Source: a phage. From it: DNA of 64,000 bases. Shown here piece after piece: positions 1,687 through 61,764 of this stretch. The translations under genes were made by a program, and so were the position numbers. Location of the stretch: assembly GCA_011939005.1 (NCBI GenBank), contig GCA_011939005.1_4858.1, one strand, 5' to 3'. Numbering within the stretch: position 1 is the first letter of the stretch; each line of letters starts with the position of its first letter. The notes under the pieces are model-generated. The model was not told the DNA's origin. It saw only the letters and a list, made by a program, of their open reading frames with translations, and did no database searches.

Positions 1687-1734
1687 AAAAAACAAAAAAA
1701 ATAAGATTGGCGTACTCCCCGAAGAGAGTACGCC
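1687..1734 (-). terminator. Intrinsic terminator (stem 1709-1717/1726-1734, UUCG-type loop on minus RNA, U-tract from plus A-run 1686-1704)
   Basis: 9-bp GC-rich stem directly 3' of minus-strand gene ending at 1742, followed on minus strand by long U-run. Confidence 0.7.
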
Positions 1735-1741
1735 TAGTGAC

Positions 1742-2251
1742 TTAACACTTGATGGTGTAGCCATCAAGGCCAAGGTGTACTGGTTTTATCCATAACCCTG
1801 GCTCCCCGAAAATATTCAGGTCGTAAGTTTGGTAATGCATGATCTTTGCAGGAACATGCACACCCATGCGTTGCAGAAATTCCCAGACGGCGACGTAGCG
1901 TTCACGAGTGATGAACATTAGCCCGGAGTCGAACCCGGAACCGATGTCTAGGAAATTACCAAGAGAACTGTCAAAACTTGACACCCCATCTTGAGTAAGT
2001 GCGACCAACCCTTTAGTTAAATCTCTGTGGTTGTCAATGAAGTTACAGAGATCTACGATGGTTATTTGACCGTAAATACGACGGAGGACGGCAGCAACAG
2101 CCAAAATCTCGCTGGTATTTCCGTAGTCACCTAAAGGGTTATGGTCCATCATCGCAGTAATTATGCTTGTGTCGCAGAGGTCGATTAACCGCTGGTCGTG
2201 TACCACCAGGTTAAGACCTTGCTCCACCTGCACGGTTGGCGCAGTAAACAT
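1742..2251 (-). CDS. Hypothetical protein (about 169 aa; ORF extends to 2296 but internal ATG at 2251 follows SD ggag and avoids overlap)
   Basis: Six-frame ORF; SD ggagcctcct immediately before ATG at 2251 and just after stop of upstream gene. Confidence 0.5.
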   Translation of the reverse strand: MFTAPTVQVEQGLNLVVHDQRLIDLCDTSIITAMMDHNPLGDYGNTSEILAVAAVLRRIYGQITIVDLCNFIDNHRDLTKGLVALTQDGVSSFDSSLGNFLDIGSGFDSGLMFITRERYVAVWEFLQRMGVHVPAKIMHYQTYDLNIFGEPGLWIKPVHLGLDGYTIKC

Positions 2252-2261
2252 AGGAGGCTCC

Positions 2262-3395
2262 TTACGTTTTGACTGACTGTGAAGGTAATCTGGCATCGTA
2301 CATTAAAAAGATTTCCAGCAGGTTCATACCCGTCGCGTAAAAGATTTGGTCTGTGATGACACTCACTAACGCATCTGGGTCAATCGCATCTACTGCGAAA
2401 TCGCTGTCGAACTGCCAGAACTCGACGTCATCCCCCTTTTCAAACGTCGCGGCATACAATCCAGGTTTCACACCACGCCGGAACGAAAAGAGTTTTGCGT
2501 CAGACTCAGTGTCCTTACCATAAATTTCCCCGTCGGTCAGTGTGATCGCTGCGCGTTTACACCGAGTTACCGTAAGGAGCGCACGGTTTGCAGATGCTTG
2601 CGATTTAAACGGATAGGGGCCATCGTATGTCGGGACATTCTGGTCGCCTAAGGCATCAAGTGCCTTACTCCGATAGACTACCGGAGACTTAAAATTACAC
2701 AGTCGATTCCCTTCGGTAAACATTGTGTATTCGACCTTAACGTCGGTACCGACGAGGTCAGCAGGGGACACTTTGTAGTGTGCTAACTGTCCCTGCACGC
2801 GGCGAGAGAGCATCGATGCCAGGAACGTGTGGTTGCCCTGTGTACGCAAGACATACCCAAACTCTGTGCAGTCGACGATACGAGCGTCCATACGCCGTAC
2901 AGGCTCCAGCCGGTAAGTCACATCATTCGCTTCGATAAGAAACTGACTGATGCTAACATCGCGAGATCGATGTTTGATTGCTTCAAACACTTCACCCGCT
3001 TCCAGAATAGCTGGTTCAATTACATTGACCTGGAATGGGAGGGGTTTCGTCGGCCGTTGACCCATTGTTGTCACTGTCATCGAACGTAGCCACGGGTCGT
3101 CCTCGCTAGGGTCATTGGAGAGCCAATGCGTTAACCAGCGAGAAAGATTCTGGGGAATCGTTGCGGTTGAATATAAAATCACGGTACCCATTATGCCTGC
3201 ATCGGCCAGCAAGCGCGCGAGTACCGTGTTCATCGAATCGTATTTGCCATTTCGAAGAATAGGTAATCCCCCGACCTGGACCATTTCGCAGATGACGCCG
3301 TGCGGCAGCACCCACATCTTCACTTGTTGGGCAGAATGTATCTGCCCCGTGCGTAGCTTTTCTTGCCACGCGTGCTTACGTTCATAGTTCATCAT
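2262..3395 (-). CDS. Hypothetical protein, 377 aa
   Basis: Long ORF, SD aggag upstream, followed by terminator at 1709-1734 after next gene. Confidence 0.6.
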   Translation of the reverse strand: MMNYERKHAWQEKLRTGQIHSAQQVKMWVLPHGVICEMVQVGGLPILRNGKYDSMNTVLARLLADAGIMGTVILYSTATIPQNLSRWLTHWLSNDPSEDDPWLRSMTVTTMGQRPTKPLPFQVNVIEPAILEAGEVFEAIKHRSRDVSISQFLIEANDVTYRLEPVRRMDARIVDCTEFGYVLRTQGNHTFLASMLSRRVQGQLAHYKVSPADLVGTDVKVEYTMFTEGNRLCNFKSPVVYRSKALDALGDQNVPTYDGPYPFKSQASANRALLTVTRCKRAAITLTDGEIYGKDTESDAKLFSFRRGVKPGLYAATFEKGDDVEFWQFDSDFAVDAIDPDALVSVITDQIFYATGMNLLEIFLMYDARLPSQSVKT

Positions 3396-3467
3396 TGGGT
3401 AAAATCTCCTTCAGGTATACTCTCAGTATGATAACATATATCCGTAAATTTTTAGAGGTTTAGCGCC

Positions 3468-4844
3468 ATGTCTGAATTGGTTTATGATTTCAGTGCCGGT
3501 TGTTATCGTGATACCGGAGTGAAGGTTGCCGTCGAATCATTCGGACGTGACCCATTCTTCGACGATGACACGTATTCTACGGGCTTGTATTACGACTACG
3601 GTTTTGGCGGCTACGTTCCGATGGGACTGGTGGTTGCTGCAGAAGCCATGAAGAATGACCGATTACGTAAAGTGTTTGACGAATGTTTTAAACATGTCGT
3701 TATCGATCGTCGTTTTGCAAAGCAAATTCAACTTCACGTGGATAACATTCTTAAACGTGAAGGCAATGTGGAGTGGCTAGGGTCTAATCTATTAGGCGTC
3801 CACACCATTCGTTTCTACGATTCTGACCGTAACCGCTTTTTTGAAGATGTCTTGAAAGTGGATGAAGATTATCTGTTCGAGATGATTAAAGAATCGGGTA
3901 CGATTAACACCGACTGGGCAGTGGCGGGTGATCCGTATAACCTCTCTACGGTGTATACTCTACATCGAATGATGTCGAAATTCGCCGATCGTGAAATCCA
4001 CGCCGCGGCGGTATCGTTAGTAACGCTTCTGCAATTCAAATTCTACTCCAGTATATATTATCACTTCTTCCCCAAGCCGGTCGACATGGCCGCTGCCGAC
4101 GCCGCATACTCGATGTTGTCGTTAAAGTTCGATATCCGTCGTTTAGGCAACTGGGGTCTGCACATGCAGGAGCGTTCAGAATACTTCTGTTCTCCGGAGT
4201 ACCCAAACTACGACGCGGTTAAACGTTTTGATACGCCAGACCTGGTATTGCGTTTTATCACCGACCTGAACACCCGTACCAAACAAACTGTGAAGGACTA
4301 TTACGCGGTATTGGACAAAGTGCGTCGTGATAACAGTCGTGTAATTACGCAGTCAACCCGAATTGAGTTAGACGGTGAATCGATTATCCGTGACAAAGTG
4401 GGTGCGCTGGATATCGCTAAGCAGAATTTGTTCGATGCGTCTTACGACATCAACAATCTCTACAAAGAGCAATTGGCAAAAGTGGTATTGGAGCTAGTAC
4501 CCAAAGCATCTCCCGCGGCACTGAAAACTTTGCTGGCGTATATTGCAAGTCTACCGCTTGGCAAAAAGCGCGATGAGATTAACGCTATCATGGAGGACAC
4601 GCTATCGCACGCGTTCGACGAAATTGTTACCTCTCGTCTGAACTTTAACGATGCGAGCACGGTTCTACTGCGTATGCGTTCGTTGTACCAGGCTTCGAAG
4701 TCCCCTAACCCATACGTGTTATCGTTGCGTGAACGGATTGAGAAACTGGCCGCACGGGAAACACACATCCGCCATGAAGCCGCGTTGGCCGCTTTGCGTA
4801 ATGCGTTACTGTTGTACTTCTTGATCCGCTCTTTGCAGAAATAA
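3468..4844 (+). CDS. Hypothetical protein, 458 aa
   Basis: Long ORF with SD gagg upstream and strong terminator downstream. Confidence 0.7.
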   Translation: MSELVYDFSAGCYRDTGVKVAVESFGRDPFFDDDTYSTGLYYDYGFGGYVPMGLVVAAEAMKNDRLRKVFDECFKHVVIDRRFAKQIQLHVDNILKREGNVEWLGSNLLGVHTIRFYDSDRNRFFEDVLKVDEDYLFEMIKESGTINTDWAVAGDPYNLSTVYTLHRMMSKFADREIHAAAVSLVTLLQFKFYSSIYYHFFPKPVDMAAADAAYSMLSLKFDIRRLGNWGLHMQERSEYFCSPEYPNYDAVKRFDTPDLVLRFITDLNTRTKQTVKDYYAVLDKVRRDNSRVITQSTRIELDGESIIRDKVGALDIAKQNLFDASYDINNLYKEQLAKVVLELVPKASPAALKTLLAYIASLPLGKKRDEINAIMEDTLSHAFDEIVTSRLNFNDASTVLLRMRSLYQASKSPNPYVLSLRERIEKLAARETHIRHEAALAALRNALLLYFLIRSLQK

Positions 4845-4895
4845 AATAAAATGCCACCTCTCCAGTTTCGGAGAGGTGGCTACGTCGTATTTTTT
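4841..4895. terminator. Bidirectional intrinsic terminator between convergent genes (hairpin 4853-4880, 11-bp stem)
   Basis: Perfect 11-bp stem gccacctctcc/ggagaggtggc, T-run 4889-4895 on plus, A-run 4841-4850 giving U-run for minus. Confidence 0.75.
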
Positions 4896-4910
4896 CGAGT
4901 TAAAGTTGAT

Positions 4911-5153
4911 TCAGGCGAGTGCTCCCGATACGGCAACTTGATGTAGGGTATACACAACGTGTAGCCCCGCGGTCGATAGTCCACCGATAAGCAATACGCC
5001 AAAGCTACAGATAATCTGTCCGAGCCGCATTGTGCGTGTGCAGACATCGTGGCTTTGTGCGTGTATGCGTATTACTTCGATGGTGTGGCGTAAGCCAAAG
5101 TACAGGCAAATCCACATTACCAGCACGATTGCATAGTAGAGTTGAGTCATCAC
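4911..5153 (-). CDS. Small membrane protein with two predicted TM helices (holin-like candidate)
   Basis: 80 aa, two hydrophobic stretches (LYYAIVLVMWICLYFGL and IICSFGVLLIGGLSTAGLHVV); start overlaps terminase stop by 4 nt. Confidence 0.45.
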   Translation of the reverse strand: MMTQLYYAIVLVMWICLYFGLRHTIEVIRIHAQSHDVCTRTMRLGQIICSFGVLLIGGLSTAGLHVVYTLHQVAVSGALA

Positions 5154-7261: not shown

Positions 7262-7305
7262 ACAATCTCCATACCTCCACCCCCGAAGGGGTGGAGGAAG
7301 GTTTG

Positions 7306-8949: not shown

Positions 8950-8951
8950 GA

Positions 8952-15365: not shown

Positions 15366-15421
15366 CAAAAAAAAACAAGCGTTACCTCTCTCCATTTGGA
15401 GAGAGGTACGTTTTATTTTTT
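15366..15421. terminator. Bidirectional intrinsic terminator (hairpin 15380-15410) after sheath/tube-like gene pair
   Basis: 13-bp stem with one bulge, A9 run upstream and T-rich run 15411-15421 downstream. Confidence 0.75.
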
Positions 15422-15970: not shown

Positions 15971-16003
15971 AAAAAAAATAGGGCAGTCATAAGACCACCC
16001 TAA
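15971..16003 (-). terminator. Weak terminator-like hairpin plus U-tract immediately upstream of SD of gene 15413-15955
   Basis: Imperfect stem taggg..cccta with A8 run on plus strand; weak. Confidence 0.3.
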
Positions 16004-16011: not shown

Positions 16012-16374
16012 TTAGAGGAAGCCTTTTTCTTTCAAGGCTTCTTCAATGATTTCTGCAATGTGCGCAGCACGTGTTTCACCGCCGTCGGCATCAGGCCCGA
16101 ACTCTTCCGGGTCAAAATCCTGCAAGGCGTCTACGATAACTTGTTTCGCGTTTTCTGACTGTGACATGGTGTATTCCTCTCGATAAAATTTAGGATTAGC
16201 AGCAAGCGCAATAGGCGCAGGCATAGGTTTAGGGAAGGTGACGGTGAGACCGATTTCCTCGTGTGACGCAATGGTGCCATCCCAACGTAACCCAGTAGCA
16301 GGATTCACATTAGGATGGCATTCCACTTTAGCCCCGAGTAGCTCAGCGAGTTCCTTTGGGCTGGACGGAATCAT
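16012..16374 (-). CDS. Hypothetical protein, 120 aa
   Basis: ORF in operon context. Confidence 0.5.
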   Translation of the reverse strand: MIPSSPKELAELLGAKVECHPNVNPATGLRWDGTIASHEEIGLTVTFPKPMPAPIALAANPKFYREEYTMSQSENAKQVIVDALQDFDPEEFGPDADGGETRAAHIAEIIEEALKEKGFL

Positions 16375-17560: not shown

Positions 17561-17594
17561 GTAAATATTCCTTACGGTAATGGTCGATTAACTA

Positions 17595-18437: not shown

Positions 18438-18530
18438 TGTAAATACTCCTTCTGGGTAATAGTCGATTAAAGCGTTAACGTGTAACGCTCACCTAAGTAA
18501 TATATATCTCAGTTCTTTTTGAATGCAATT

Positions 18531-18574
18531 AATAAAATAAAAAGGCTCACCCGTATCCGAAGATAGGATGAGCC
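18531..18574 (-). terminator. Intrinsic terminator (imperfect hairpin 18544-18574 with UUCG loop on minus RNA)
   Basis: Stem with internal bulge, loop cgaa on plus = UUCG on minus RNA, A-rich run 18531-18543 on plus. Confidence 0.55.
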
Positions 18575-20976: not shown

Positions 20977-21038
20977 TGGTTTCCCCAGTTGTTATTACCG
21001 AAGCGGGTTATTGGGGACGTACAATAACCCTACCTCAG

Positions 21039-23542: not shown

Positions 23543-23589
23543 TATTAACTCCGGAGTTTATTTACCGGGCGGGAGCGACCCGCCCTACA

Positions 23590-26500
23590 TTAGTTGATTT
23601 TAGCCGGCAAGGCTGGGACGTCTTCACCATCTAAGATGCGTCCGATATTCTCCCCACCACGATACCCGACAGCGTTGGTGGTTCCGATGCGCATGATAGA
23701 ACCTACGATACGTGCGTCGACGGAATCACGACCAAAGATAATGTCGAGTTCCTGCCCGTCTTCCGTTTTGTTGGTTCCATACATCACTTCCTGAACCGTC
23801 GTTTTCAGCTGGTTAGCAATAACCATCTTATCCGCTGCTGCCATCTCTACCCGGTGTGTGATGTAGAATCGGACACACAGGCTATTGTACGCTAACGGCA
23901 CCCCCTCAACACGAAAATCACCGTTGACTCGACCGTCCTTCGGCTCGTCACGTTTGAGAGCCAGCGCAGTCTTCCGACGTATACGGTCGTATTTACGAAC
24001 CATCTCCGCCAAAGACGGGGTCATATCTTCCACCTCGCCGTGGTAAACCACTTCGATTTTGTCGATAAACCCACGAACACCAGAGCGTGGTGCAAAGGAG
24101 CTTAACTCACGCAGCGTTTCCGCTGCTTCTTTACTGAACCCGCTCATATCGCCGGTCAGGTTGTCGGTGAAGGTGCATAGAATTGAATCCACGTCTACGT
24201 GGTCCCCTTCTTTTACCATCTCCAACAGGTTCTGGGTAAACGTCATTGTGACTTCTTTGAGTTTGGTAACATCGGCTTCAGCCTTAGCAGCGAACCGCTC
24301 ACTAATGGCGTTGGAGTCCTCAATTACTTCTTCCCCTTCAATCAAAGCGACAGTTGCCAGTATCCCGTTTTTAAAACTGACCTGCGTTGGATCGTAGATG
24401 TCTGGTTCAAAGTGTTGTTCGTTGTACGTGATAACGGCACCGGCAGGGAGTTTATCTCCGCGCTTCCATTTCGTTACCAGGGTGTGTGGGTAGTAAGTCC
24501 CTTCGTGTGGACCGAACCAACGGCCCAGTGGGAAAGCTTCTTCCTCTCCGTCGTCGTATTTGATTTTAACGTGGTCGTTAAGAACCTCCACAATCTTGCC
24601 TGGTTTATCGATTACGCGTGCGTGCTTCACAGAAGTACGGTGTGCCACGAACTTTTCTTGCTCGGTACGATACGGTGTGGTGGTTGCGCCAACACAACTG
24701 GTCGCAGAACCGAATTGAATCCCAACGAAGTTCTGACGCTTAGCATCGTCCATCAGGGTATCCGGCACCAAGCCATCAATAAATGACAGTGCCTCACCTG
24801 GCTTCAGTTTATCGAGGTCCTTTTTAAAGGTCGTGCCGTCCACGGTGTCGTAACGCGGATTGTTTGTTGCAAAGGCGGTGATACCTACGTCGCCGTTATC
24901 GACCGTGTTACCGGAGATAATCCCCAGGTCGCTCGGTTGGAATTCACGGGTACTGTATACCATGGTTTTGCGGTTACGACCACCTGTACCGCCCATGGTA
25001 ACGACATCTTTTTCTTTGATGTTCTGTACCGGGTTTGCGCCAGGAGCCAGCAGAACAGACGGGTCGGAGTTAATTGCACCCCACACCATGTCCTGCGTCA
25101 ACTCAAACTTACGATTTGAGTTAGGCGCGTTGTTGTAGTTACGCATCGCCCGCACCATCGCGGTGTAGATGTGATACGAAATACGTTGGTTCCCGATGAA
25201 CATCATTTCGTCACCGTTAATTTCCGGTAACGTGTGGTCCGTCTGCAGCAGTTCGTTAGAACGCTCCAGTAAGCCGATAAAGGTTTCCGGCTCGCCCATT
25301 TTCCTGAGGATACGCGCGTGCATGTCATCAACAAATGCGGTCCGCATCAGTTTCAGCTCTTTGATGTAGCGTGGTGTTAGCCCATCTGCATCGCGTAACA
25401 GGTTCAGATAAATGTCTTCCCGGTCAACTTCCGACTCGGTATACGTGGTAAAGTGTTTGATGTAACGGTCTAAGCCGTTGACAATCATCCTCTGTTGATC
25501 GTTCTCGCAGACAATTGCAATTTTCGCATCCTGGAGACGAATAATGGAGTCGAACTGACCTTTATCGATACGTTGTCCGACAGAGAGAACCTCGTAACTG
25601 ATACCAAAGTGTTTCAACATCCCGGTTAACCCGAGATAGTACGAAAACACAAAGCCCAGCGAGATTGATTTGCCCATCAGTGACAGTTCGGTCATTTCTC
25701 GTGGAGCCTTAGAGGTGTCCACGCCAAAGACCTCGGCGAGTGTACCCAGTGGTTCGGTCTTATCCTTATCCACTCGATAAAGCTGGGAGTTTTTATCCAT
25801 ACCGACGATGACATGACTCCGCGGTTTCTTCGCCACAGGTACCAGCTCGACACGGTCCGCGTCTGCCAGTTGCCCTTCGTTAAAGAATGCCGCTTTCTGT
25901 TTAATGTCAAAGTTCCATTGGTACCCAATTGCGTTGAACGCTGCTACACGACGTGCCACCTCGGTGTACTGACGCGGCAGTTTAGACAGCGGATCGAACA
26001 CATTCGCCAGTTTTGCATCAGTGATTTCGGTGTTCTTTGGATCGACCGCGCGAGTAATAATCGCATTAGTGAGCCAACGTCCGTAATCATTGACGACTTT
26101 ATCACTGCGACGGACAAAGTTCTTCCCGTAGGCAGTGGTTAACGCTACAGTATCGTGGGACACTTTACGGATAGGAAGATCAACGCGCTGACGACGCATT
26201 GTATATTCTACACCATTCGCAACCCAAGTACCGTCTTCGGTTAATGCAGGAATTGAGAAACGTACCGTGGTTGGTTCTCCGCCAATCGGCTGAATACGCA
26301 ACGTGTGGTGTTCGATATTCCCGGTAACGGAAATCTCTTTCTCGACAGTGTGATTGTGAATCGCTAAACCAAGACGTTGGGATGACGCTACTGCCCCCAG
26401 AATATCTTTCGGGAAGATTTCCTGGTTGTACTGACGAATGATTTGGTCGGTGGTATTTTCCGCCCAGGCTTCATCCGTAACTAAGCGTTCAATCTTCTTA

Positions 26501-27795
26501 GGCTCGGCTTTAACTTCGAGTTTCTTAGGATCGATGGTCAGACCTTCGCCGTACGTCTCTTTAGGATTGTACGGGTTGGGTAAGTTTACGAAACGTTTAG
26601 AAGATTCGTTCAGGAACTGATACGCTTTGGCGGTGACGCGGCCCGCTTCTGCCAGGCGCTCAACTTCCTGTTTAATCACAGCATCGTGTGGGATGGTGCG
26701 TTCTACGACGATGGTGGTTGGTTTGACATCTTCTTTCGGCGCTTCGATGACCAGATCTTCTTTCTCATCGAACTCATGATCGTTCAATATATCGTCAACG
26801 TTGTCGCTTTGTGTTGCTTCATCGTCGACGATATCGAGGGTTTCTTCCGGTTTACTGGCAACGGCTTCAACAACATCGTCGTCCTCTCCCAGATGTACGC
26901 GTTCGTCCCCTTCCGGTGTAACGAACTCGTCATCTTCGTAGTCGGTAGACGGCGGTGTGGTCATCACAGTAGTCAGTGTACGGTAGAACATTCTGCCCAT
27001 CTGCACGTCAGTCAAACGACCGCCGGCAGACTTACGCATTCTTTCAATTACACCCATGTTCATGGATGTAAAACCACCGTTGTGCGTGAAGATAAAGTTC
27101 ACACGTGACAGCTGGTTCATGTCCATACCGTCAAACAGGGTTGCTTGCTGATCGCCGTAAGCCCAACCGAACAGTTCCAGTAACCACAGCAGGTTAAAGT
27201 CCTTAAAGCGCTCCAGTTTGGTTTTAACACGATCGTTATACGTCATTTTAAAACGATCGAAAGAAGGCAGTACGTTACCCAGTTCGATGATGTAGTAGTT
27301 CTGACGCATGTACTCACGTGAGTCAGTTTTCATCTGGTTAGTTATCAGCAGCTGAATGTTGTGCAGACGTTCGTACCAGGACATCAGAGTATCAGGGTAG
27401 AAATAATGCGGCAGCATCGGGGTGTAGTTTTCGATGAGCAGCACTTTCGGATCTGAACGCACCACACCATCTTCAATCATGCGACGAATACGACGGTTGT
27501 TACGATGGTACTGGAAGATTTGACGTTCTTGGCCAACAACAGGTTTCTTACGCGGATGGCCAATAATGCCGTCTTCAGGTAGCTGGAAGTGATGGCGAAT
27601 CATCGCCGGTTTTTCCAGCTGGCCAAAACACGGTGTAGTTAACGGCGGCGCTAAAACCACCTGGTCTAAATCGATGGTGTGGTAGATAGAACCACGTGGG
27701 AGCTGGAGCTTCTCCAGCGGGATAATACGCGGACGACCGAACTCATCGGTCTTGCGCACGGTAAAGCGCTGGTTAAACTGTTTCAGAAAAATCAT
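23590..27795 (-). CDS. Multisubunit RNA polymerase beta-like subunit (N-terminal portion through flap/NFEDS-like region), 1401 aa
   Basis: By-eye similarity to E. coli RpoB recalled from memory: N-terminus TVRKTDEFGRPRIIPLEKLQL vs RKDFGKRPQVLDVPYLL; GGTGGRNRK vs GPGGLTRER; WKRGDKLPAGAVI vs VERGDVLADG; EDSNAISERF vs EDSILVSERV. C-terminal RpoB motifs absent. Confidence 0.65.
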   Translation of the reverse strand: MIFLKQFNQRFTVRKTDEFGRPRIIPLEKLQLPRGSIYHTIDLDQVVLAPPLTTPCFGQLEKPAMIRHHFQLPEDGIIGHPRKKPVVGQERQIFQYHRNNRRIRRMIEDGVVRSDPKVLLIENYTPMLPHYFYPDTLMSWYERLHNIQLLITNQMKTDSREYMRQNYYIIELGNVLPSFDRFKMTYNDRVKTKLERFKDFNLLWLLELFGWAYGDQQATLFDGMDMNQLSRVNFIFTHNGGFTSMNMGVIERMRKSAGGRLTDVQMGRMFYRTLTTVMTTPPSTDYEDDEFVTPEGDERVHLGEDDDVVEAVASKPEETLDIVDDEATQSDNVDDILNDHEFDEKEDLVIEAPKEDVKPTTIVVERTIPHDAVIKQEVERLAEAGRVTAKAYQFLNESSKRFVNLPNPYNPKETYGEGLTIDPKKLEVKAEPKKIERLVTDEAWAENTTDQIIRQYNQEIFPKDILGAVASSQRLGLAIHNHTVEKEISVTGNIEHHTLRIQPIGGEPTTVRFSIPALTEDGTWVANGVEYTMRRQRVDLPIRKVSHDTVALTTAYGKNFVRRSDKVVNDYGRWLTNAIITRAVDPKNTEITDAKLANVFDPLSKLPRQYTEVARRVAAFNAIGYQWNFDIKQKAAFFNEGQLADADRVELVPVAKKPRSHVIVGMDKNSQLYRVDKDKTEPLGTLAEVFGVDTSKAPREMTELSLMGKSISLGFVFSYYLGLTGMLKHFGISYEVLSVGQRIDKGQFDSIIRLQDAKIAIVCENDQQRMIVNGLDRYIKHFTTYTESEVDREDIYLNLLRDADGLTPRYIKELKLMRTAFVDDMHARILRKMGEPETFIGLLERSNELLQTDHTLPEINGDEMMFIGNQRISYHIYTAMVRAMRNYNNAPNSNRKFELTQDMVWGAINSDPSVLLAPGANPVQNIKEKDVVTMGGTGGRNRKTMVYSTREFQPSDLGIISGNTVDNGDVGITAFATNNPRYDTVDGTTFKKDLDKLKPGEALSFIDGLVPDTLMDDAKRQNFVGIQFGSATSCVGATTTPYRTEQEKFVAHRTSVKHARVIDKPGKIVEVLNDHVKIKYDDGEEEAFPLGRWFGPHEGTYYPHTLVTKWKRGDKLPAGAVITYNEQHFEPDIYDPTQVSFKNGILATVALIEGEEVIEDSNAISERFAAKAEADVTKLKEVTMTFTQNLLEMVKEGDHVDVDSILCTFTDNLTGDMSGFSKEAAETLRELSSFAPRSGVRGFIDKIEVVYHGEVEDMTPSLAEMVRKYDRIRRKTALALKRDEPKDGRVNGDFRVEGVPLAYNSLCVRFYITHRVEMAAADKMVIANQLKTTVQEVMYGTNKTEDGQELDIIFGRDSVDARIVGSIMRIGTTNAVGYRGGENIGRILDGEDVPALPAKIN

Positions 27796-39420: not shown

Positions 39421-39476
39421 AACAAAAAATAAGTATTACGAGTACCCCGTCGGGGTACTCGTTTGCTTTATTTTTT
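39421..39476. terminator. Bidirectional intrinsic terminator (hairpin 39439-39461)
   Basis: 10-bp stem cgagtacccc/ggggtactcg; A-run before and T-run after; lies between convergent genes ending 39411 and 39475. Confidence 0.75.
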
Positions 39477-40825: not shown

Positions 40826-40866
40826 TTAAACAAAAAAATAACTAGGGTGTCCATATGGACACCCTA
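40826..40866 (-). terminator. Terminator-like hairpin 40843-40866 with U-tract abutting SD of gene 39872-40813
   Basis: 10-bp stem tagggtgtcc/ggacacccta; plus A-run 40831-40839; SD aaggag immediately downstream on minus strand. Confidence 0.55.
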
Positions 40867-44171: not shown

Positions 44172-45031
44172 TAGATACTATCCCTCTTTAAGCTTTCAAA
44201 TAAGTAAAGTAGATCATCATTCATCACCACATTCACACCGCCATCTGTGTAGGCTGCGGTTATTTCAGGTACACGTTCGAACAGGATACGATTCCAGCGC
44301 ACTGAGTCACGAACATATTTGTCCAGCAGTTCGTTTAACGTAGTTGCGAGTGCAGCATTGATTGTCGGCAACTCGTCGCGTTTAAACGGCCGGTGGCAAT
44401 AGGGCGCAAGGTGCGTAGCGACACAACTGTCCAGGACAGTCTGGAACATCAGACAGATGGCTGGCCCAGCCATCTGTCTAGAACCAGGCAATTTATCGCC
44501 AGTAAAATCATCAGACGCGGGAACAAACAACCCGATGCCGTTCATTTCACCTTTCGTGTTGATTAGCACACGATGTCCGTTGTATATTACACGGCCGAAT
44601 TCCAGGCCGCAGATACGCGCCAACATTCGGTATTGTCGCGCCAAACTATGCAGCTCGGTAACGTAGCTGTGGGGCTCGTGCTCATCTTGCAATATGAGTC
44701 CAACCACTTCGGTGGCAACAACAAAAAGGTTATGAAGACGGAACTCTTTGGTGTTTCCCGTGGTGCGGTCTTTTATAGCTGCATCCAGTGGAATAACGAA
44801 ATCTCCCACGTTCGTGTGCTTGCCGAAGTGCAACAGACCAACGAACGCCCAAAGAGAGCGACCCATGGCCGCCGCCACTTTCAAGTTGTCCATCTTCTGC
44901 ACACCTTCAGCGACGTCGCCTAATGTGCGATAGAACTTGGCTAGCTGCTGCTCGCGTGTCCCGTATTGGTAAATCTTCGCTTGCCGGTACCAATCATCAA
45001 CCGCCTGAGTCTGCTGAATAATACTAAGCAT
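44171..45031 (-). CDS. Hypothetical protein (about 286 aa; start at ATG 45031)
   Basis: SD aggagg 7 nt before ATG 45031; longer ORF to 45097 would overlap upstream gene. Confidence 0.55.
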
Positions 45032-45869: not shown

Positions 45870-45908
45870 GATAAAAAATGAAGATACCCTCTCCCGAAGG
45901 AGAGGGTA
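45870..45908 (-). terminator. Intrinsic terminator (hairpin 45885-45908, C(UUCG)G loop) abutting SD of gene 45492-45854
   Basis: 10-bp stem taccctctcc/ggagagggta, loop cgaa on plus; A-run 45872-45877 on plus. Confidence 0.7.
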
Positions 45909-52277: not shown

Positions 52278-52322
52278 CGCTAATCCTCAGGGGGGAAAAC
52301 AGGCGGGTTGCCCCGCCCATGC

Positions 52323-54985: not shown

Positions 54986-55039
54986 AAAGTAAGCAGTACC
55001 CACTCCCCTTACGGGAGTGGGTAGGCTTTATTTTATTTG
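54975..55039. terminator. Bidirectional intrinsic terminator between convergent genes (hairpin 54997-55023)
   Basis: 11-bp stem tacccactccc/gggagtgggta, T-rich run 55027-55037, A-rich run 54975-54988. Confidence 0.75.
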
Positions 55040-55956
55040 CATTTAGAACCGTTGACAAATGTCGGCGGTATCCATTTCAAAATCTTTGTCCGATTCCCGT
55101 CACGTGGACCGAGCCAGTAAGTACACCAGTGTGCACGACGCATATGCGCACATCTGCTACCTTGTGTTCTTTTCTCCGTATCAGTATCAAATTCTTCAAG
55201 ATACTCGCTTTGTGCTTTTACGGTGGAGAGGACAGTCGGTTTAGATTTTGGTTCAATGTGGTAATTGGCGATACGTTTCTTTCCAGTTAATTGTCTCAGT
55301 TTGACGGGTGTAGGGTTGTGCGGGATCAGTGAGAATGTAAACATGGTAGCGCCGACAATGCGTAACGTTTTCTCATTGGCCGGCGTACCAGTTTCCGCCA
55401 CACGCAAGGATACAAAGCCGTCACCCACGTCCACGATTTCAAAGGTTTCCCCCTCGATACGTTTTCCAAAAATCATCATTGTTAAACAATCTTTCCCTTT
55501 AAACATTCGCCGACCGAAAACGTAAGTCTTTTCTTGGATACCGATATCTTTAGCGCGATAGCACACTGAAAAGGAGACGGCCCAACCGGGAATCTTGTCT
55601 ATCCAGCTGCGTGGTATCTCAGTGAGAACGTCGCCAAGTAGAACTTGTTCAAAAATATTAAGATCAAATTCCATTTGGATACCCCCGTATCGCCAGCCGT
55701 AGGCAAGAGACAGGAAGTCTGCGGTGCATTCTTCGGCGAAGCAGTTCTTTAGGAACGCCTCAATCGGTATAAAGTGCTGGCCTATCTCGCCACAATGGGC
55801 TATTGCGTATTGCTCGATGATGGCGGGATCTCCACTTCTGGATTTCACACGTTCGTCGATTTTAGTAAGACCGTTTAAGAAATTACTCGGGGATTCGCGC
55901 ATACCGATTACATCTACATTTACCGATTCTGCCAAATCAAAAAGAAAGCTGTCCAT
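55033..55956 (-). CDS. Hypothetical protein, 307 aa, monocistronic (terminators on both sides)
   Basis: SD aaggag 7 nt upstream; C-terminal Cys/His cluster RCAHMRRAHWC. Confidence 0.6.
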   Translation of the reverse strand: MDSFLFDLAESVNVDVIGMRESPSNFLNGLTKIDERVKSRSGDPAIIEQYAIAHCGEIGQHFIPIEAFLKNCFAEECTADFLSLAYGWRYGGIQMEFDLNIFEQVLLGDVLTEIPRSWIDKIPGWAVSFSVCYRAKDIGIQEKTYVFGRRMFKGKDCLTMMIFGKRIEGETFEIVDVGDGFVSLRVAETGTPANEKTLRIVGATMFTFSLIPHNPTPVKLRQLTGKKRIANYHIEPKSKPTVLSTVKAQSEYLEEFDTDTEKRTQGSRCAHMRRAHWCTYWLGPRDGNRTKILKWIPPTFVNGSKCK

Positions 55957-55983
55957 TTAATACTCCTTTAGATTAATGGTCGA

Positions 55984-56019
55984 TTAAAATAAAACTACGG
56001 ACACCCCGAAGAGTGTCCG
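55984..56019 (-). terminator. Intrinsic terminator (hairpin 55998-56019, UUCG loop on minus RNA)
   Basis: 7-bp stem cggacac/gtgtccg directly after stop at 56025, A-rich plus run upstream. Confidence 0.6.
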
Positions 56020-56024
56020 TTTAA

Positions 56025-56567: not shown

Positions 56568-57103
56568 TCAACAGGTTTCCCATATTTCTCGCCGAGATAC
56601 AGCAGTTCGCGACGACAGATAGCCAGCACCTTCATCTCCGCCTCACGATACAGCTTGGTGATTTTGTCAATGATTGGCTGGTCAACGATATCGGACCATG
56701 TTACCGTATCCGTAACGTTCGACGTTTGCCCGTTAATGACCACAGCAACATATGTCTCGCCCAGGTTCTCTTGATGTAACCCCGCCAGAGATTCACCAAC
56801 CTTATCAAAGGCTTCACTCAATAAGTCGGTGATTTGGTCCGTCCCTTCTACCAGTTCAAAACGATGGGGATAGTTCAGAATGTTACGCAGCCGCGTGAAC
56901 ATACGCTCAATAAGCTGATTTACCATATCCCCAGTGTCACAGATAGTCACATCTACACCCGAACCTATTTCGTCAGACAAACGATTTTCGTGGACGGCCA
57001 ACGCATCGTGAAGTTCAAATTCCACGTCACGTTTTAATCCTAACAGAATTTCATCTAGCTGACGTCTCGACTCCGACAGAGCGAAGTCAATTACGATTTG
57101 CAT
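56564..57103 (-). CDS. Hypothetical protein, 179 aa (tandem paralog)
   Basis: ORF; see previous. Confidence 0.55.
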   Translation of the reverse strand: MQIVIDFALSESRRQLDEILLGLKRDVEFELHDALAVHENRLSDEIGSGVDVTICDTGDMVNQLIERMFTRLRNILNYPHRFELVEGTDQITDLLSEAFDKVGESLAGLHQENLGETYVAVVINGQTSNVTDTVTWSDIVDQPIIDKITKLYREAEMKVLAICRRELLYLGEKYGKPVE

Positions 57104-57113
57104 CTAATGCTCC

Positions 57114-57521
57114 TTAAAAGTTACTTAACTCGGGCTGCGTATACCAGTATCTGCACGCTACGAGATCCACAACGTTATATTTCAGTTGTCCACCGTGCTG
57201 TGACGTGTCTGCCAATTCATGCGCAAGCTTGTACGCCAAGTCTTCACGGTTGTCGAGGATAAGCAACACAACACGCTGCACCTCATTAAAGATATCCGGT
57301 TCACGTAAACAACTGTAGCGCTCGCTAAGATGCTTAATAACGCCTTTATAAACATCTTCTGGTACAGCAGTGCCATTTTCTGCTACGTGGAATGAAACAA
57401 GCACGATTTTAATTAAAATCTCGACAACCATGGAGTATATCATTCCACGGTTGCCGTTAATTTCCACATGCTTTAGATACTCTTGCAAGTCCATCAATGA
57501 CTCGCTATACACCTTTAACAT
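57114..57521 (-). CDS. Hypothetical protein (about 136 aa; start at ATG 57521)
   Basis: SD agaggtgg before ATG 57521, 11 nt after upstream stop. Confidence 0.45.
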   Translation of the reverse strand: MLKVYSESLMDLQEYLKHVEINGNRGMIYSMVVEILIKIVLVSFHVAENGTAVPEDVYKGVIKHLSERYSCLREPDIFNEVQRVVLLILDNREDLAYKLAHELADTSQHGGQLKYNVVDLVACRYWYTQPELSNF

Positions 57522-57532
57522 AGCGACCACCT

Positions 57533-57904
57533 CTAGTTGGTTGCCGGCCACACCCCTGGCGATGGGATTGCATCGTATCCACGCCATTTCTTAATGGCAA
57601 CAAGGCTAGTGCCTGGGGAGCCGTCTAAATCGAAACCGACGGTTGCAACCACATCAACTTCGGTTTCTAAGTTAGAGTGGCCGATCGGAGAGAGGTGGGA
57701 GAAGCTGACGACTTTACCGCCCTGGATGGCGGTATCTCGAACTATACGAGCCATCTGTCTTATTTCTTGAGAAACTGGGCCGCGTAGGGTGGTTACCCGC
57801 GACGATAACGTCAACCAGTTTTCGCTCTCGGGTGCGACTATGTACAGAATAGTCCCTTCTTTAAAGTATTGTTTAACCAGTGTTTCAAATTCGTCTTGCG
57901 TCAT
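57533..57904 (-). CDS. Hypothetical protein, 123 aa
   Basis: ORF. Confidence 0.45.
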   Translation of the reverse strand: MTQDEFETLVKQYFKEGTILYIVAPESENWLTLSSRVTTLRGPVSQEIRQMARIVRDTAIQGGKVVSFSHLSPIGHSNLETEVDVVATVGFDLDGSPGTSLVAIKKWRGYDAIPSPGVWPATN

Positions 57905-57917
57905 GTTAAATACTCCT

Positions 57918-58652
57918 TCAGTAGTTTAGTTTCTCAGCGACTTCTTTACGGATGCGACACATCACCACCATCGCACCATTCGGAATTTGGCTCACGCAGT
58001 TATCCGTGTAAAACTTACCTTCACAGAGATAAAAGTCCAGACACATGGCATCGGTCAGTTCGTGCCACAGTGTGCCGAAACCATACTGCCAAGGGCCGGA
58101 ATGAACGACATCGTAATCGCCATCAGTTATGCCAAATGCGGCAGTAGCGGAAGACCACAGTGTTGAGGAGGTGGTATAAGTGTCATACCAGTAACCGAGC
58201 AGTCGATGGTTACGACGTATCTCAGCTAACCGCTCGTACATTGGGATGAATACGTCCTCCACTTGCGTGACAAAATCAGCCAGCATCAACTTTTCCGTGA
58301 ACCACTCGATCCACGCAAAGATTTGTTCTTCAACGTCTTGTTGGCTTAACCCCGTGGCAGTAATGCCTTCTTCGTAGGTGTAACCTTCGTAGACGTCAAC
58401 AACATTAATCTCTACATGCTCTAGCGTGAACAACCGTTCGGTGTTGATGCAGTCGTACATCTCTTGTAACCACGCAGTGAAGACTTCTATACAGACGTTG
58501 ATGGCTGTATACTTGAATTCATCGCGCAGAGGATACCACTGTGGGTTATCCTTTAGTTCGTTCTTCGCGAACGCGGGCCAATGCTTTTCGAACAACGCTT
58601 CAAAGAACTGGGGCGTGAGGTTTAAAAGCACCGGCACTTCGACTTTAAGCAT
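57918..58652 (-). CDS. Hypothetical protein, 244 aa
   Basis: ORF. Confidence 0.55.
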   Translation of the reverse strand: MLKVEVPVLLNLTPQFFEALFEKHWPAFAKNELKDNPQWYPLRDEFKYTAINVCIEVFTAWLQEMYDCINTERLFTLEHVEINVVDVYEGYTYEEGITATGLSQQDVEEQIFAWIEWFTEKLMLADFVTQVEDVFIPMYERLAEIRRNHRLLGYWYDTYTTSSTLWSSATAAFGITDGDYDVVHSGPWQYGFGTLWHELTDAMCLDFYLCEGKFYTDNCVSQIPNGAMVVMCRIRKEVAEKLNY

Positions 58653-58705
58653 CGTGAATAAATTCTCCTTAAGGTTACGTCCCTGTAGATAATATCTATC
58701 TCAGA

Positions 58706-59446
58706 TTACTTTAAGAGATGCAAGAAGCGTGCTGCCTGTTCTGTAAAGTGAAAATACTCGATGGTATCAGGTTCGTCCGAGTGAATGTCGTCCGGGTCCA
58801 GCAGGTAGCCCGAGATATCATCCGTTAAAACCCAAGCGTCCCCTTGCAGGAAAATACCCATCGGTTTTTCTACCACGGGCATCACTAAGTCCGAATAAGA
58901 GTTACCTTCTGCTACCCTTACAATGTCTTCGCACGGGTCAACAATATACAGGTTGCAGAGACTGCGATCTTTAAGACTGCGATGAAACATCGCTCGATCG
59001 TACCAAATAACCTGAGAACAATTATCTTCGTCACCCGCCACATCGACCAACTCTGTCCAGAAACGATGTAAGAACCAGTTCAACGCACCGGTTATTAGCT
59101 CGTTCGGTTTCAGCATTCTAACGTGTTCGTCGTACAACTCTTCCATTGTCCAGATTCGACATTGCTCACGATCGATTGTCGGTAGCGGAGGTATTTGCGG
59201 CGGGACTTGTTTAGGCATCGGCTCATCACATCTTGCATTGTAACGCGCAATTGTTTCGGTAACCAGCTCTGCCACAACATCACAAGCCGCTTCAAATCCC
59301 CACTTGTACAACACGTCGTAATCTTCCATGGGCGCAGCACCGAACTCACGGTTCGTTGCCATCCACGACATCCATCCGTATTGCTCCACACAGTTAATCA
59401 GACTTTGTGTGTGGAGCGTGAGCGATTCACTCACGACTCGCAACAT
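58706..59446 (-). CDS. Hypothetical protein (about 247 aa; start at ATG 59446)
   Basis: SD gaggtg; ATG overlaps stop of upstream gene (ATG at 59444-59446, TAA at 59448-59450). Confidence 0.5.
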   Translation of the reverse strand: MLRVVSESLTLHTQSLINCVEQYGWMSWMATNREFGAAPMEDYDVLYKWGFEAACDVVAELVTETIARYNARCDEPMPKQVPPQIPPLPTIDREQCRIWTMEELYDEHVRMLKPNELITGALNWFLHRFWTELVDVAGDEDNCSQVIWYDRAMFHRSLKDRSLCNLYIVDPCEDIVRVAEGNSYSDLVMPVVEKPMGIFLQGDAWVLTDDISGYLLDPDDIHSDEPDTIEYFHFTEQAARFLHLLK

Positions 59447-59447
59447 G

Positions 59448-60962
59448 TTACACCTCTTCTTCTCGCAGTATGCGACGGTTTGCGTAATACGCACACCACA
59501 ACCCATGATACTCTTTACCGATATAGATTAAGAAGTAACGGATGTAGTATTTTTCAGGACGACACACCGCGATGTAATAACGGCCTTCCGGTTCTTTAAT
59601 ACGGTTGATTTCCGTACGCGATGGAATATCGATACCGCGAGTCAAAATAACCGAGACAGGTCGTTTACCCATCGGAAAGTCGATCTTTAACGTTATTGAC
59701 TTATCGACGCTACGGTAGTATTCCTTGACAGGTTTACCTTTGTCGTCGAATAGCAAGTCGGTAATGTCGTTTAAGACATAACCCTTTTCCTGATGCAGAA
59801 CATCTCTCAACGTTGTAGCGAGTTCGTCACGAATATCCAGCGCACGGTACGACAATAAGGGCGGGCGAAGCATTCTGGAGATGGCCAGGTCTTCAAAGAA
59901 CCAGACATTAGAATCCTCCCCACTGAAATGCATCTTGTCTGCCGGCAATCCGTCGCCTGCCACATCAACGAATTTCTTACGCTTAACGAACTCATTGTTA
60001 ACAACGCCAATTGGATCATACTGCCGCATCTTCGGTGTATCTTTCCATGCCAGGGCGGCGTGGTTGTTTACAATCGTGTAGATGTTATCCCACGGTTGTT
60101 TAGTGAACATTACGGAAAAGTGTGCATCGGGAATCATTTTCCCAATAAACACCAAGTCGTCCTTGTTCTTTGCATGGTTGCCACCAAACATGTAATAGAA
60201 AGTTTCATCTTTCACTTTTACAGTAGGATGGTCTTCGTTCACCAACGGATAGCAATATTTAACCGTACAAATCGGCGGATATGCCGCAAGGTTCATCCCA
60301 GCGGCGATGGGCTCGGGTTCCGCGGATGCAGGCAACTCATCCTTCGACCAGTACGGCTGATATGGAACACCGTCGTTGGTCGCGGTGATAGCTGAACCTT
60401 TTCTAGCCAATTCGTCCGCCCGGTCGTTACCGTAGTGGCCGGAGTGTCCTTTGATTTTGATAACCTTAACACCCCGTCCTTCTTTTTTCATCTGCTGTTT
60501 GATTTCCCAGATACGAACAATAAGTTCTTTGTTCGCCAGCGGAGTACCATCAGCACGAACCCAACCACGTTTATGCCAGCCGTCTATCCACTCGTTAAAA
60601 GTGTTTACAACGTAACTGGCATCCACGTAGATGATATAGTTCTTCGCACGGAATGGCGCATTCTCAAACAACGTGATGAAGGCGATTAACTCGCCCACAT
60701 CTGAGTAGAACTCTTTCGGAACGGGAATAACGGCGTCGACAAATTGAACGGTGTCCGGCAACTCCGGACACTTCACATCCTGCGGCACTTTTTTGTATCC
60801 AACAGTGGTAATCCGTTCTGAAACACCCGGATGGCTATAAGCCTGACTGTCTTCCAAATCTCCGTTGTTGAATAAATAACCATGAATACCAGCCCCCGAA
60901 CCTTTCGGGGACTCAGTATGACTACCATCGGTATAAATAACCGCTACGTCGACGTCTTTCAT
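59448..60962 (-). CDS. RNase HI-domain protein with about 300-aa C-terminal extension of unknown function
   Basis: N-terminal domain matches E. coli RNase HI at all five catalytic positions: VAVIYTDGS (D10), GELIAF (E48), YVDASY (D70), KGHSGH (H124), NDRADELA (D134). Confidence 0.85.
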   Translation of the reverse strand: MKDVDVAVIYTDGSHTESPKGSGAGIHGYLFNNGDLEDSQAYSHPGVSERITTVGYKKVPQDVKCPELPDTVQFVDAVIPVPKEFYSDVGELIAFITLFENAPFRAKNYIIYVDASYVVNTFNEWIDGWHKRGWVRADGTPLANKELIVRIWEIKQQMKKEGRGVKVIKIKGHSGHYGNDRADELARKGSAITATNDGVPYQPYWSKDELPASAEPEPIAAGMNLAAYPPICTVKYCYPLVNEDHPTVKVKDETFYYMFGGNHAKNKDDLVFIGKMIPDAHFSVMFTKQPWDNIYTIVNNHAALAWKDTPKMRQYDPIGVVNNEFVKRKKFVDVAGDGLPADKMHFSGEDSNVWFFEDLAISRMLRPPLLSYRALDIRDELATTLRDVLHQEKGYVLNDITDLLFDDKGKPVKEYYRSVDKSITLKIDFPMGKRPVSVILTRGIDIPSRTEINRIKEPEGRYYIAVCRPEKYYIRYFLIYIGKEYHGLWCAYYANRRILREEEV

Positions 60963-61681
60963 TATTCTCCTCGCAACTGCGGTGGAATGTATTCACCTGT
61001 GCACATTTCGCGGTGAGCTTCTAACATGCGTTCGAAGCCGTACGTACGCGCGACCAGGGCCAAATGATAGATGCGTGCCGTAGAATACGCTTCCTTCGCA
61101 GCATCAAAGTTAGCGTTATGCTCGTACGCTTCTTTGCCGCGGGTCCAATGGTGCGCTTCTGCGTGCCAGTTCGGTTCCAGGCCAAACGCATATGCAATAC
61201 GTTCTGCAGTCCGGTCAGAGTCCAATATAGAAAACTTGCGGTACTTGCCCGGCGGGATATCGCACTGCGCGAATGCGTTCATCAGAATTGGAGCATCGAA
61301 ATCGGGACCACGCATGGTGATAACCATTTTCACGTTGCCCAGATCATCCAACCATTTTTTGGCCGCCCACAGCGCTTCTGGCAGTGGAGTGGTCCCAGAA
61401 AACGCTTCAATACGTGCTTTCTCGCTCGGTGCGTATTCGGGGTCGCCTTTACCTTCCCAATAACCGACCGTTTGTGGATCGATGTAGAAGATTTCTTTTG
61501 CTTTTGCATCATTGGGGTCGATTTTGTGGTAACATGAACCGATCATTTTCATTGTCGGAACATCGAATGCCACGTTTGCCAACGTTAAGATGTAGGCATC
61601 TGGACGTAAAGCCAGGGTCTCTAAGTCCGTCCCAACAACAACGGTGGGCGTTAAAACAGGCAGAATTTTAGGATATGTCAT
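60962..61681 (-). CDS. DEDDh-family 3'-5' exonuclease
   Basis: Exo I GTDLET, Exo II PDFDAPIL, Exo III HNANFD in order. Confidence 0.6.
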   Translation of the reverse strand: MTYPKILPVLTPTVVVGTDLETLALRPDAYILTLANVAFDVPTMKMIGSCYHKIDPNDAKAKEIFYIDPQTVGYWEGKGDPEYAPSEKARIEAFSGTTPLPEALWAAKKWLDDLGNVKMVITMRGPDFDAPILMNAFAQCDIPPGKYRKFSILDSDRTAERIAYAFGLEPNWHAEAHHWTRGKEAYEHNANFDAAKEAYSTARIYHLALVARTYGFERMLEAHREMCTGEYIPPQLRGE

Positions 61682-61725
61682 TTCAACTCTCCACGAGATT
61701 ATATATCACACTATTGACTATTAAC

Positions 61726-61764
61726 GTAAAAAAGGAAATCCCCTCTTACCCGAAGGTAAGAGGG
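61726..61764 (-). terminator. Intrinsic terminator (hairpin 61741-61764, C(UUCG)G loop)
   Basis: 10-bp stem ccctcttacc/ggtaagaggg, loop cgaa on plus, A6 run 61728-61733. Confidence 0.7.

Follow-up and report, generated by a model that had tools for sequence, protein, structure and literature searches.

The stretch of DNA analysed here, called the window, comprises 64,000 nucleotides of a phage contig (GCA_011939005.1_4858.1; NCBI GenBank assembly GCA_011939005.1), and the subject of this report is a set of short GC-rich hairpins, six of them with a C(UUCG)G tetraloop, that lie just behind the stop codons of its genes and probably act as transcription terminators. The window belongs to a Salmonella jumbo phage of the SPN3US group (Seoulvirus), with 97-98% identity across 20-25 kb by megablast. 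Its orientation is reversed relative to the SPN3US reference, positions 1225-64000 corresponding to SPN3US 240413 down to ~178600, so that the minus-strand genes of the window are SPN3US gp002-gp062. Among the genes are those for terminase, tail sheath, a 2373-amino-acid tail fibre and three proteins annotated as "RNA polymerase beta subunit", and the homologues of gp059 and gp060 encode exoribonuclease-like and ribonuclease-like proteins.

SPN3US is phiKZ-like, and phiKZ-like phages carry both a virion and a non-virion multisubunit RNA polymerase; the rifampicin-resistant development of phiKZ is independent of the host polymerase (PMC7598289). The annotation of SPN3US likewise carries polymerase subunit genes. 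Terminator features are not annotated in the regions fetched from the records of SPN3US and its relatives SPAsTU, Asesino and ChrisDB, literature searches found no studies of SPN3US-type terminators, and Rfam and tRNA scans of the window gave no matches.

Hairpins at gene ends

All 11 hairpins that an earlier note on this DNA had listed exist where it placed them. Six carry a TTCG loop closed by a C-G pair on the minus strand (1709-1734, 7274-7297, 18544-18574, 45885-45908, 55998-56019 and 61741-61764). The minus strand is the coding strand of the genes that flank these six, and each stem starts about 4-9 nt past the stop codon of a minus-strand gene. A seventh, at 4853-4880, had been counted with them as UUUCG-like; read on the plus strand its loop is AGUUUC, and on the minus strand AAAC, so that this hairpin, which stands between convergent genes, does not belong to the UUCG group. 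Two further hairpins, at 15979-16002 and 52299-52320, had been overlooked. Altogether, 13 strong hairpins lie within 0-30 nt after stop codons, and the hairpins of the window have stems of 9-14 bp, loops of 3-6 nt and folding free energies of -15 to -25 kcal/mol. The features are as follows.

1709-1734, minus strand: putative C(UUCG)G terminator hairpin; stem of 11 bp, one pair being G.U; begins 7 nt past the stop codon of the gp002 homologue (1742-2296); AAUCUUAUUUUUUUU comes next.
4853-4880, both strands: putative bidirectional terminator between convergent gp004 (plus) and gp005 (minus); stem of 11-12 bp; T-runs on both strands.
7274-7297, minus strand: atypical C(UUCG)G hairpin with a 10-bp stem, in the gap that separates gp007, a virion-protein gene, from the gene for the large terminase.
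15380-15410, both strands: putative bidirectional terminator between convergent gp011 (plus) and gp012 (minus); loop AUUU or AAAU; A9 upstream and a T-run downstream.
15979-16002, minus strand: putative terminator hairpin; 10 bp with a G.U pair; loop UUAU, then U8; after the open reading frame (ORF) 16012-16374.
18544-18574, minus strand: putative C(UUCG)G terminator hairpin; stem of 14 bp, interrupted by one bulge; begins 9 nt past the stop codon of the gp018 homologue; UUUUUAUUUUAUU comes next.
39438-39462, both strands: putative bidirectional terminator between convergent gp029 (plus) and gp030 (minus); stem of 11 bp; triloop GUC or GAC.
40843-40866, minus strand: putative terminator hairpin behind the gp032 homologue; stem of 10-12 bp with an AUAU loop, then GUUAUUUUUUUG.
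45885-45908, minus strand: putative C(UUCG)G terminator hairpin; stem of 10-11 bp; begins 3-4 nt past the stop codon of the gp041 homologue; CUUCAUUUUUUAU comes next.
52299-52320, minus strand: hairpin behind the gp050 homologue with a GCAA (GNRA) tetraloop; UUUU and then a C-run come next; probably a weak terminator or stability element.
54997-55023, both strands: putative bidirectional terminator between convergent gp052 (plus) and a 307-amino-acid ORF (minus); stem of 11 bp; loop CUUAC or GUAAG.
55997-56020, minus strand: putative C(UUCG)G terminator hairpin; stem of 10 bp, one pair being U.G; begins 4 nt past the stop codon of the gp053 homologue; AGUUUUAUUUUAAU comes next.
61741-61764, minus strand: putative C(UUCG)G terminator hairpin; stem of 10 bp; begins 5 nt past the stop codon of the gp061 homologue; GAUUUCCUUUUUUAC comes next.

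Enrichment, placement and strand

Such stems are far more frequent in the window than its composition would produce. Counting perfect stems with loops of 3-8 nt against 40 dinucleotide shuffles, 15 stems of at least 9 bp were observed as compared with 1.18 +/- 1.38 in the shuffles, and 10 stems of at least 10 bp as compared with 0.35. Non-coding DNA, which makes up ~5% of the window, holds 12 of the 15 perfect stems of at least 9 bp. A chance origin of the hairpins is excluded.

The placement of the hairpins follows the direction of the genes. When each intergenic region of the window was folded on its transcribed strand, each of the four non-overlapping convergent junctions showed a strong hairpin set between a preceding A-run and a following T-run, a GC-rich perfect stem was seen at none of the five divergent junctions, and a hairpin of -15 kcal/mol or better was found in 10 of the 13 same-strand intergenic regions of at least 40 nt. 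Hairpins at convergent and same-strand gene ends, and not at divergent junctions, are the pattern expected of terminators.

The loop and its flanks are strand-specific as well. On the plus strand, the intergenic DNA of the window contains CCGAAG seven times (six of these being the tetraloops) and CTTCGG not once, and thus the loop reads UUCG on the minus, or sense, strand. The flanking A/T runs described in the earlier note are borne out for five of the six UUCG hairpins, which have a T-run on the relevant strand, and fail for the hairpin at 7274-7297, which has none; all four bidirectional hairpins have the run. A U-tract is accordingly present at 1709, 18544, 45885, 55998, 61741, 15979 and 40843 and on both strands of the four convergent sites.

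Census of the SPN3US genome

For a genome-wide census, the SPN3US genome was assembled from six fetched pieces. It contains 38 hairpins with a TTCG loop and a stem of at least 6 bp: 24 at same-strand gene ends, 4 at convergent junctions, 1 antisense, 1 in another position and 8 in coding DNA. Thirty of the 38 are intergenic, although non-coding DNA amounts to only ~4-5% of the genome. Among the complex 8-mers of SPN3US, CCTTCGGG shows the strongest intergenic enrichment, 14 of its 15 copies standing in intergenic DNA.

Hairpins of any loop in terminator position were found at 53 unique loci after same-strand genes and at 17 convergent loci, with a median distance of 7 nt from stop codon to stem. 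At the same-strand loci UUCG is by far the most frequent loop (23 of 53; the runners-up occur twice each), its closing pair is C-G in all 23 cases, and at least five T occur within the next 10 nt in 21 of the 23. Its orientation is nearly uniform, with 23 UUCG loops on the sense strand against a single CGAA. Since UUCG becomes CGAA on the opposite strand, the loop suits one-way terminators, and the convergent sites show no clear preference for it. The flanking runs differ in the same way: same-strand sites have on average 5.7 T after the stem against 3.7 A before it, and convergent sites 5.7 and 5.5.

UUCG accounts for 25 of 60 loops here and, under the same filter, for 1 of 14 in Escherichia coli K-12 (Fisher p=0.015), a small baseline of 150 kb with 14 terminator-like hairpins. 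Comparison of the census coordinates with the annotation shows that the SPN3US hairpins follow genes for major head, tail and internal head proteins and also genes near those for DNA polymerase and thymidylate kinase. They stand behind structural and other genes alike, and are therefore not tied to one functional gene class.

Two observations concern the stems. An identical 24-mer, CCCTCTTACC-TTCG-GGTAAGAGGG, occurs at SPN3US 67345, 94154 and 180981 (loci L004, L005 and L002) in unrelated flanks, the copy at 180981 being the hairpin at 61741-61764 of the window. This recurrence suggests that terminators have been copied from one another or have undergone gene conversion, or that they have converged on a stem that is favoured. 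Separately, a rule of a pyrimidine-rich 5' arm and a purine-rich 3' arm (anti-Shine-Dalgarno/Shine-Dalgarno-like) had been considered on the strength of ~12 of 15 window hairpins judged by eye; it was dropped, as the genome-wide trend is not significant (31 vs 22 at same-strand sites, p=0.27; 12 vs 5 at convergent sites, p=0.14).

Covariance model and conservation

A covariance model was trained on 26 SPN3US UUCG terminators from outside the region homologous to the window, and the window was scanned with filters off. A search of this kind had been named in the earlier note as one way to check the family, and it recovered the family: the six UUCG hairpins are among the seven best matches of the model, all on the minus strand, with E-values of 1e-6 to 7e-3, the match at 7274 covering just the hairpin part. 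The remaining matches below E=0.4 are other terminator-like hairpins of the window, including that at 15979-16002 (E=0.033), and no match to coding DNA was found below E=1. In SPAsTU, Asesino and ChrisDB, too, the same model picked out comparable elements within the homologous regions.

The gene ends were also compared directly, taking the best hairpin within 95 nt past the stop codon of each orthologue in four relatives: SPN3US, SPAsTU (Seoulvirus, ~81% DNA identity), Asesino (Erskinevirus, ~77%) and ChrisDB (Machinavirus, ~75%). The upstream proteins are 47-96% identical in the last three. Wherever the end of an orthologous gene could be located, a hairpin is present at the same offset, usually with a different stem. 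For the six UUCG sites the results are as follows.

1709: UUCG in 4/4 relatives, stems differing, no other loops; model match in the window E=7e-4.
7274: UUCG in 3/4 relatives; GAAA in ChrisDB.
18544: UUCG in 2/4 relatives (SPN3US and SPAsTU); ACCC in Asesino, CUCAU in ChrisDB; model match E=2e-3.
45885: UUCG in 4/4 relatives; model match E=2e-6.
55998: UUCG in 0/2 relatives; CUGA in Asesino, GUAA in ChrisDB; model match E=1.4e-4.
61741: UUCG in 4/4 relatives with four different stems, no other loops; top model match, E=1e-6.

Sites with other loops behave similarly. The site at 4853 has orthologous hairpins with different stems in SPAsTU, Asesino and ChrisDB, the ChrisDB orthologue of the 15380 site has a UUCG loop on the gp011 strand, the hairpin at 40843 is kept in the four relatives, and so is GGCGGG-GNAA-CCCGCC at the 52299 site.

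Single-protein searches of viral contigs added few lineages (1 for gp061, 9 for gp041), and so covariation could be followed in depth at site 45885 alone, where 11 distinct lineages were aligned. Ten of them keep UUCG and one has CGGU. In this alignment 98.9% of cells are paired, five of eight pairs show double-sided changes, and the covariation score is 0.61 against 0.20 for shuffled alignments, none of 500 shuffles scoring as high and all slid registers being much worse. Pooling sites 61741 and 1709 gave 100% pairing, with double changes in 9 of 10 pairs. The position and predicted structure of the hairpins are conserved, with compensatory changes, across three phage genera.

Hairpins without a U-tract and the indel cassette

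The hairpin at 7274-7297 departs from this pattern. On the transcribed strand it has no T-run and is directly followed by UAUGGAGAUUGUAUG, which holds the terminase gene's ribosome-binding site and start codon. The U-tract is missing in the window and in all four relatives, and in all five a GGAG(A/G) ribosome-binding site follows within 1-3 nt, and then the terminase ATG. This hairpin may be an RNA-stability, processing or attenuation element, or else a factor-dependent or weak terminator.

Two other minus-strand hairpins also have no U-tract. That at 23567-23585 follows the large RNA polymerase beta-like gene (23590-27795) and is itself followed by the conserved AACUCCGGA; its GGG-UCGCU-CCC loop and inner pairs are invariant in four lineages and its outer stem covaries; it looks like a sequence-specific RNA element and not a generic terminator. 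The hairpin at 21005-21030 (9 bp, loop of 8 nt) stands between the homologues of gp022 and of the prohead protease; SPN3US has it too, Asesino has a different hairpin in its place, and SPAsTU and ChrisDB lack it.

A cassette of ~1 kb on the minus strand (55033-56020) comprises a UUCG terminator-like hairpin, a AATCGACCATTA motif, a ribosome-binding site and the 307-amino-acid ORF, which has no Pfam match. It is absent from SPN3US and SPAsTU and present in the Erwinia phages Asesino (gp235) and ChrisDB (gp236), and a putative terminator hairpin stands on either side of it.

Termination as the probable function

Taken together, the hairpins are probably the factor-independent (intrinsic) transcription terminators of the phage, with UUCG as a thermodynamic cap, a reading to which we give a probability of roughly 0.8. 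A GC-rich RNA hairpin of 9-14 bp would fold on the transcribed strand directly past the stop codon; at the U-rich tract that follows, the weak rU:dA hybrid would pause the polymerase while the hairpin invades the RNA exit channel, and the transcript would be released. Where two genes converge, a single palindrome flanked by an A-run and, on its other side, by a T-run could serve both directions. C(UUCG)G would act not as a recognition signal but as a cap, both thermodynamic and kinetic, with which a short stem folds quickly and is stable, and the orientation specificity of the loop would make it a mark of one-way terminators. Reviews describe this loop as surpassing all other known RNA loops in stability, as folding at once on transcription and as bound by no protein (PMC4371310), and replacing the loop of a terminator by UUCG improved termination in an engineered riboswitch (PMC5621056). 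Transcript 3' ends would then form at the hairpins. The enzymes stopped there are presumably the virion and non-virion multisubunit RNA polymerases of the phage, by analogy with phiKZ, whose infection is rifampicin-resistant.

The earlier note had also called the hairpins intrinsic terminators at gene ends, and this is upheld by the sense-strand T-run, the contrast between convergent (4/4) and divergent (0/5) junctions, the strand-specific loop, the conservation of the sites and the terminators mapped in phiKZ and 201phi2-1. Apart from small corrections, the observation holds; it concerns a known kind of element in an unannotated instance.

Several points weigh against this reading. The literature yielded no transcript-end mapping for SPN3US-like phages, so the case for termination rests on sequence, and bacterial-type termination by the non-canonical polymerases of jumbo phages is an assumption made by analogy. 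The hairpins at 7274-7297, 21005-21030 and 23567-23585 have no U-tract in any lineage and fall outside the canonical model. Sense RNA is more stable than antisense for 10 of 11 window hairpins (mean difference -2.5 kcal/mol) because of G.U pairs, which speaks for a signal at the RNA level, but the hairpins of this test had been picked on the sense strand. The covariation figures similarly lean towards structure, as the orthologous hairpins are best local folds and the family alignment (A1) was selected for pairing; the constant position beside the stop codon is independent of the choice of best fold.

The alternative that survives best, an unlikely one, is that the hairpins are mainly stability or processing elements of mRNA 3' ends: transcripts would read through, be cut and be trimmed back to a hairpin that blocks 3'-to-5' exonucleases, with UUCG chosen for nuclease resistance. 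CUUCGG hairpins do have several roles in phages, including mRNA stabilisation in T4 (PMC8948821), the window encodes the ribonuclease-like products of the gp059 and gp060 homologues, and the three conserved hairpins without a U-tract would fit this explanation. However, stability alone requires no T-run, and a sense-only run stands directly 3' of 21 of the 23 SPN3US and five of the six window UUCG hairpins, with runs on both sides at convergent sites. Evidence from related phages points the same way. ONT-cappable-seq located 133 termination sites in phiKZ, 61 of them with the motif BCCYCCCCHWWDGGGRRGGBYTTATKYYGT (PMC10914365), and 132 in 201phi2-1, eight of which were validated by fluorescent reporter in uninfected Pseudomonas chlororaphis (PMC11512511). 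Many of the sites in both phages are terminators made of a hairpin and a U-rich stretch (PMC10914365, PMC11512511); primary, cap-enriched transcripts end at such hairpins, and the eight sites terminate in the reporter assays. Under the termination reading, 3' hairpins probably also shield the released mRNA from 3' exonucleases, which is compatible with termination.

Distinctly less probable is a terminator code specific to the polymerase, in which the non-canonical phage enzymes would recognise the UUCG loop itself or a preferred stem sequence. The excess of UUCG over the E. coli sample (25/60 vs 1/14, p=0.015), the common sequence motif of phiKZ terminators and the identical 24-nt hairpins at three SPN3US loci would suit such a code. 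Against it, orthologous sites exchange the loop for GAAA, GUAA, CUGA, ACCC or CGGU, stems vary freely between sites, and the trend in the 5' arm is not significant. Even with three mismatches allowed, the window contains no match to the phiKZ consensus BCCYCCCCHWWDGGGRRGGBYTTAT, and a tight sequence pattern, YCYCCTTCGGGRGR, has one match against 0.17 expected, so that the family is defined by structure and loop and not by stem sequence. Moreover, the UUCG loop has no known protein binder (PMC4371310), CUUCGG hairpins abound as well in T4, a phage dependent on the host polymerase (PMC8948821, PMC7598289), and the 201phi2-1 terminators function in an uninfected host (PMC11512511). The suggestion of the earlier note that the uniform hairpins are a phage-specific signal, possibly recognised by the phage's own polymerase, is therefore not supported in that form: a generic cap, the abundance in T4, the loop swaps, termination in an uninfected host and the mismatch with the phiKZ consensus all speak against it.

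A role at the DNA level without RNA function, as recombination, replication or packaging signals or as a REP/MITE-like mobile repeat, is highly improbable and is largely refuted by strand asymmetry: most stems are perfect palindromes, one 24-mer occurs three times in SPN3US and two hairpins bound a lineage-variable gene cassette, whereas the loop (23 vs 1), the G.U pairs and the T-runs are all asymmetric between strands, the repeated 24-mers have unrelated flanks, stems differ between sites and evolve by compensatory changes, and the hairpins always lie directly past stop codons.

A broader proposal, which we regard as doubtful, is that UUCG hairpins behind stop codons are an adaptation of nucleus-forming jumbo phages, in which transcription would be uncoupled from ribosomes and host Rho and would rely almost entirely on intrinsic signals that fold fast and are read by non-canonical polymerases; those conserved hairpins that have no U-tract (7274, 23567) would then form a second regulatory class of attenuators, processing sites or protein-binding sites.

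If the hairpins are terminators, they provide a ready map of transcription-unit boundaries for SPN3US-like phages, and compact one-way and two-way terminators usable as engineering parts. In addition, a site that carries UUCG, GNRA or other loops depending on the lineage offers a natural experiment on termination by the hairpin mechanism with jumbo-phage polymerases. No new kind of element is revealed, and a specialist would not be surprised.

Other features of the window

The motif AATCGACYATTA occurs on the minus strand at 17578-17589, 18457-18468 and 55974-55985 of the window and on the plus strand of SPN3US at 65455, 94280, 114030, 167592, 223318 and 224197. On the sense strand it is followed by a spacer, AAGGAGTATT and ATG; it lies ~22-25 nt upstream of start codons, often behind a putative terminator, and is a candidate phage promoter or 5'-leader element. 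Two AT-rich motifs, AGATAGATATTATC and GATATATA, are enriched in intergenic DNA (window 58688-58701, 18501-18508 and 61700-61707, minus strand), and all seven plus-strand copies of GATATATA in SPN3US are intergenic; both motifs may be promoters of the phage polymerases.

The longest perfect stem of the window, a 13-bp hairpin AGACAGATGGCTG-GCC-CAGCCATCTGTCT at 44451-44479, sits inside the gp038 homologue's coding sequence, not where a terminator would be expected. The ORF at 16012-16374 (minus strand) encodes 120 amino acids where SPN3US annotates just the 204-nt gp013, and this mismatch in length may reflect a frameshift or an annotation difference. Finally, positions 1-1741 are ~1.7 kb without a convincing ORF, tRNA or Rfam match, with an extremely AT-rich core at ~960-1060 that contains small hairpins and has GC-rich stretches on either side. 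The SPN3US record has its ends in the corresponding region, so the stretch may represent a genome terminus, an origin or a non-coding RNA region.

Comparison with known systems

A tentative comparison is with the mobile regulatory cassettes of T4-type phages known as PeSL (promoter plus stem-loop) and with REP-like repeats. The stem-loops that bound the lineage-variable indel cassette at 55033-56020 resemble these; unlike them, the copies here have no common flanks or conserved stems, and no evidence of mobility was found. A mobile-repeat reading (REP/MITE/PeSL-like) was rejected on the grounds that stems differ between sites and that the three identical SPN3US 24-mers stand in unrelated flanks.

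The consensus of intrinsic terminators is a GC-rich hairpin of 5-15 bp with a stable tetraloop and a U-tract (PMC5621056). Bacterial intrinsic terminators have the same GC-rich hairpin, stable tetraloop and U-tract past the gene, with bidirectional versions between convergent genes. The hairpins described here differ from them in being presumably read by non-canonical multisubunit polymerases of the phage, as phiKZ suggests, in lying unusually near the stop codons (median 7 nt), and in the share of UUCG, which is ~40% of loops here and 1/14 in the 150-kb E. coli sample.

A further likeness is found in T4. As related in PMC8948821 and PMC4371310, Tuerk et al. (1988) reported that hairpins of the form (X)n-CUUCGG-(Y)n are concentrated in the intergenic regions of many phages, especially T4. 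The motif (X)n-C(UUCG)G-(Y)n, with G.U pairs allowed, is identical, and in both cases it is intergenic in a large virulent enterobacterial phage. However, T4 uses the host polymerase whereas the SPN3US-like family carries its own, and the functions of the T4 hairpins include 5' mRNA stabilisation whereas those of the window lie 3' of genes and are mostly linked to a U-tract.

Another comparison is with the phiKZ motif and motif A of 201phi2-1, from related phages with the same strategy of two polymerases. These, too, are short GC-rich hairpins with a U-rich stretch that often contains UUAU; TTAT within 14 nt of the stem was counted at 18 of 53 same-strand and 8 of 17 convergent SPN3US sites (raw counts, without background correction). 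The phiKZ loop is A/U-rich (HWWD), whereas that of the window is UUCG and the window stems are not conserved in sequence between sites; several phiKZ and 201phi2-1 stems are nevertheless similar to those of the window, for example CCUCCACCCC/GGGGUGGAGG.

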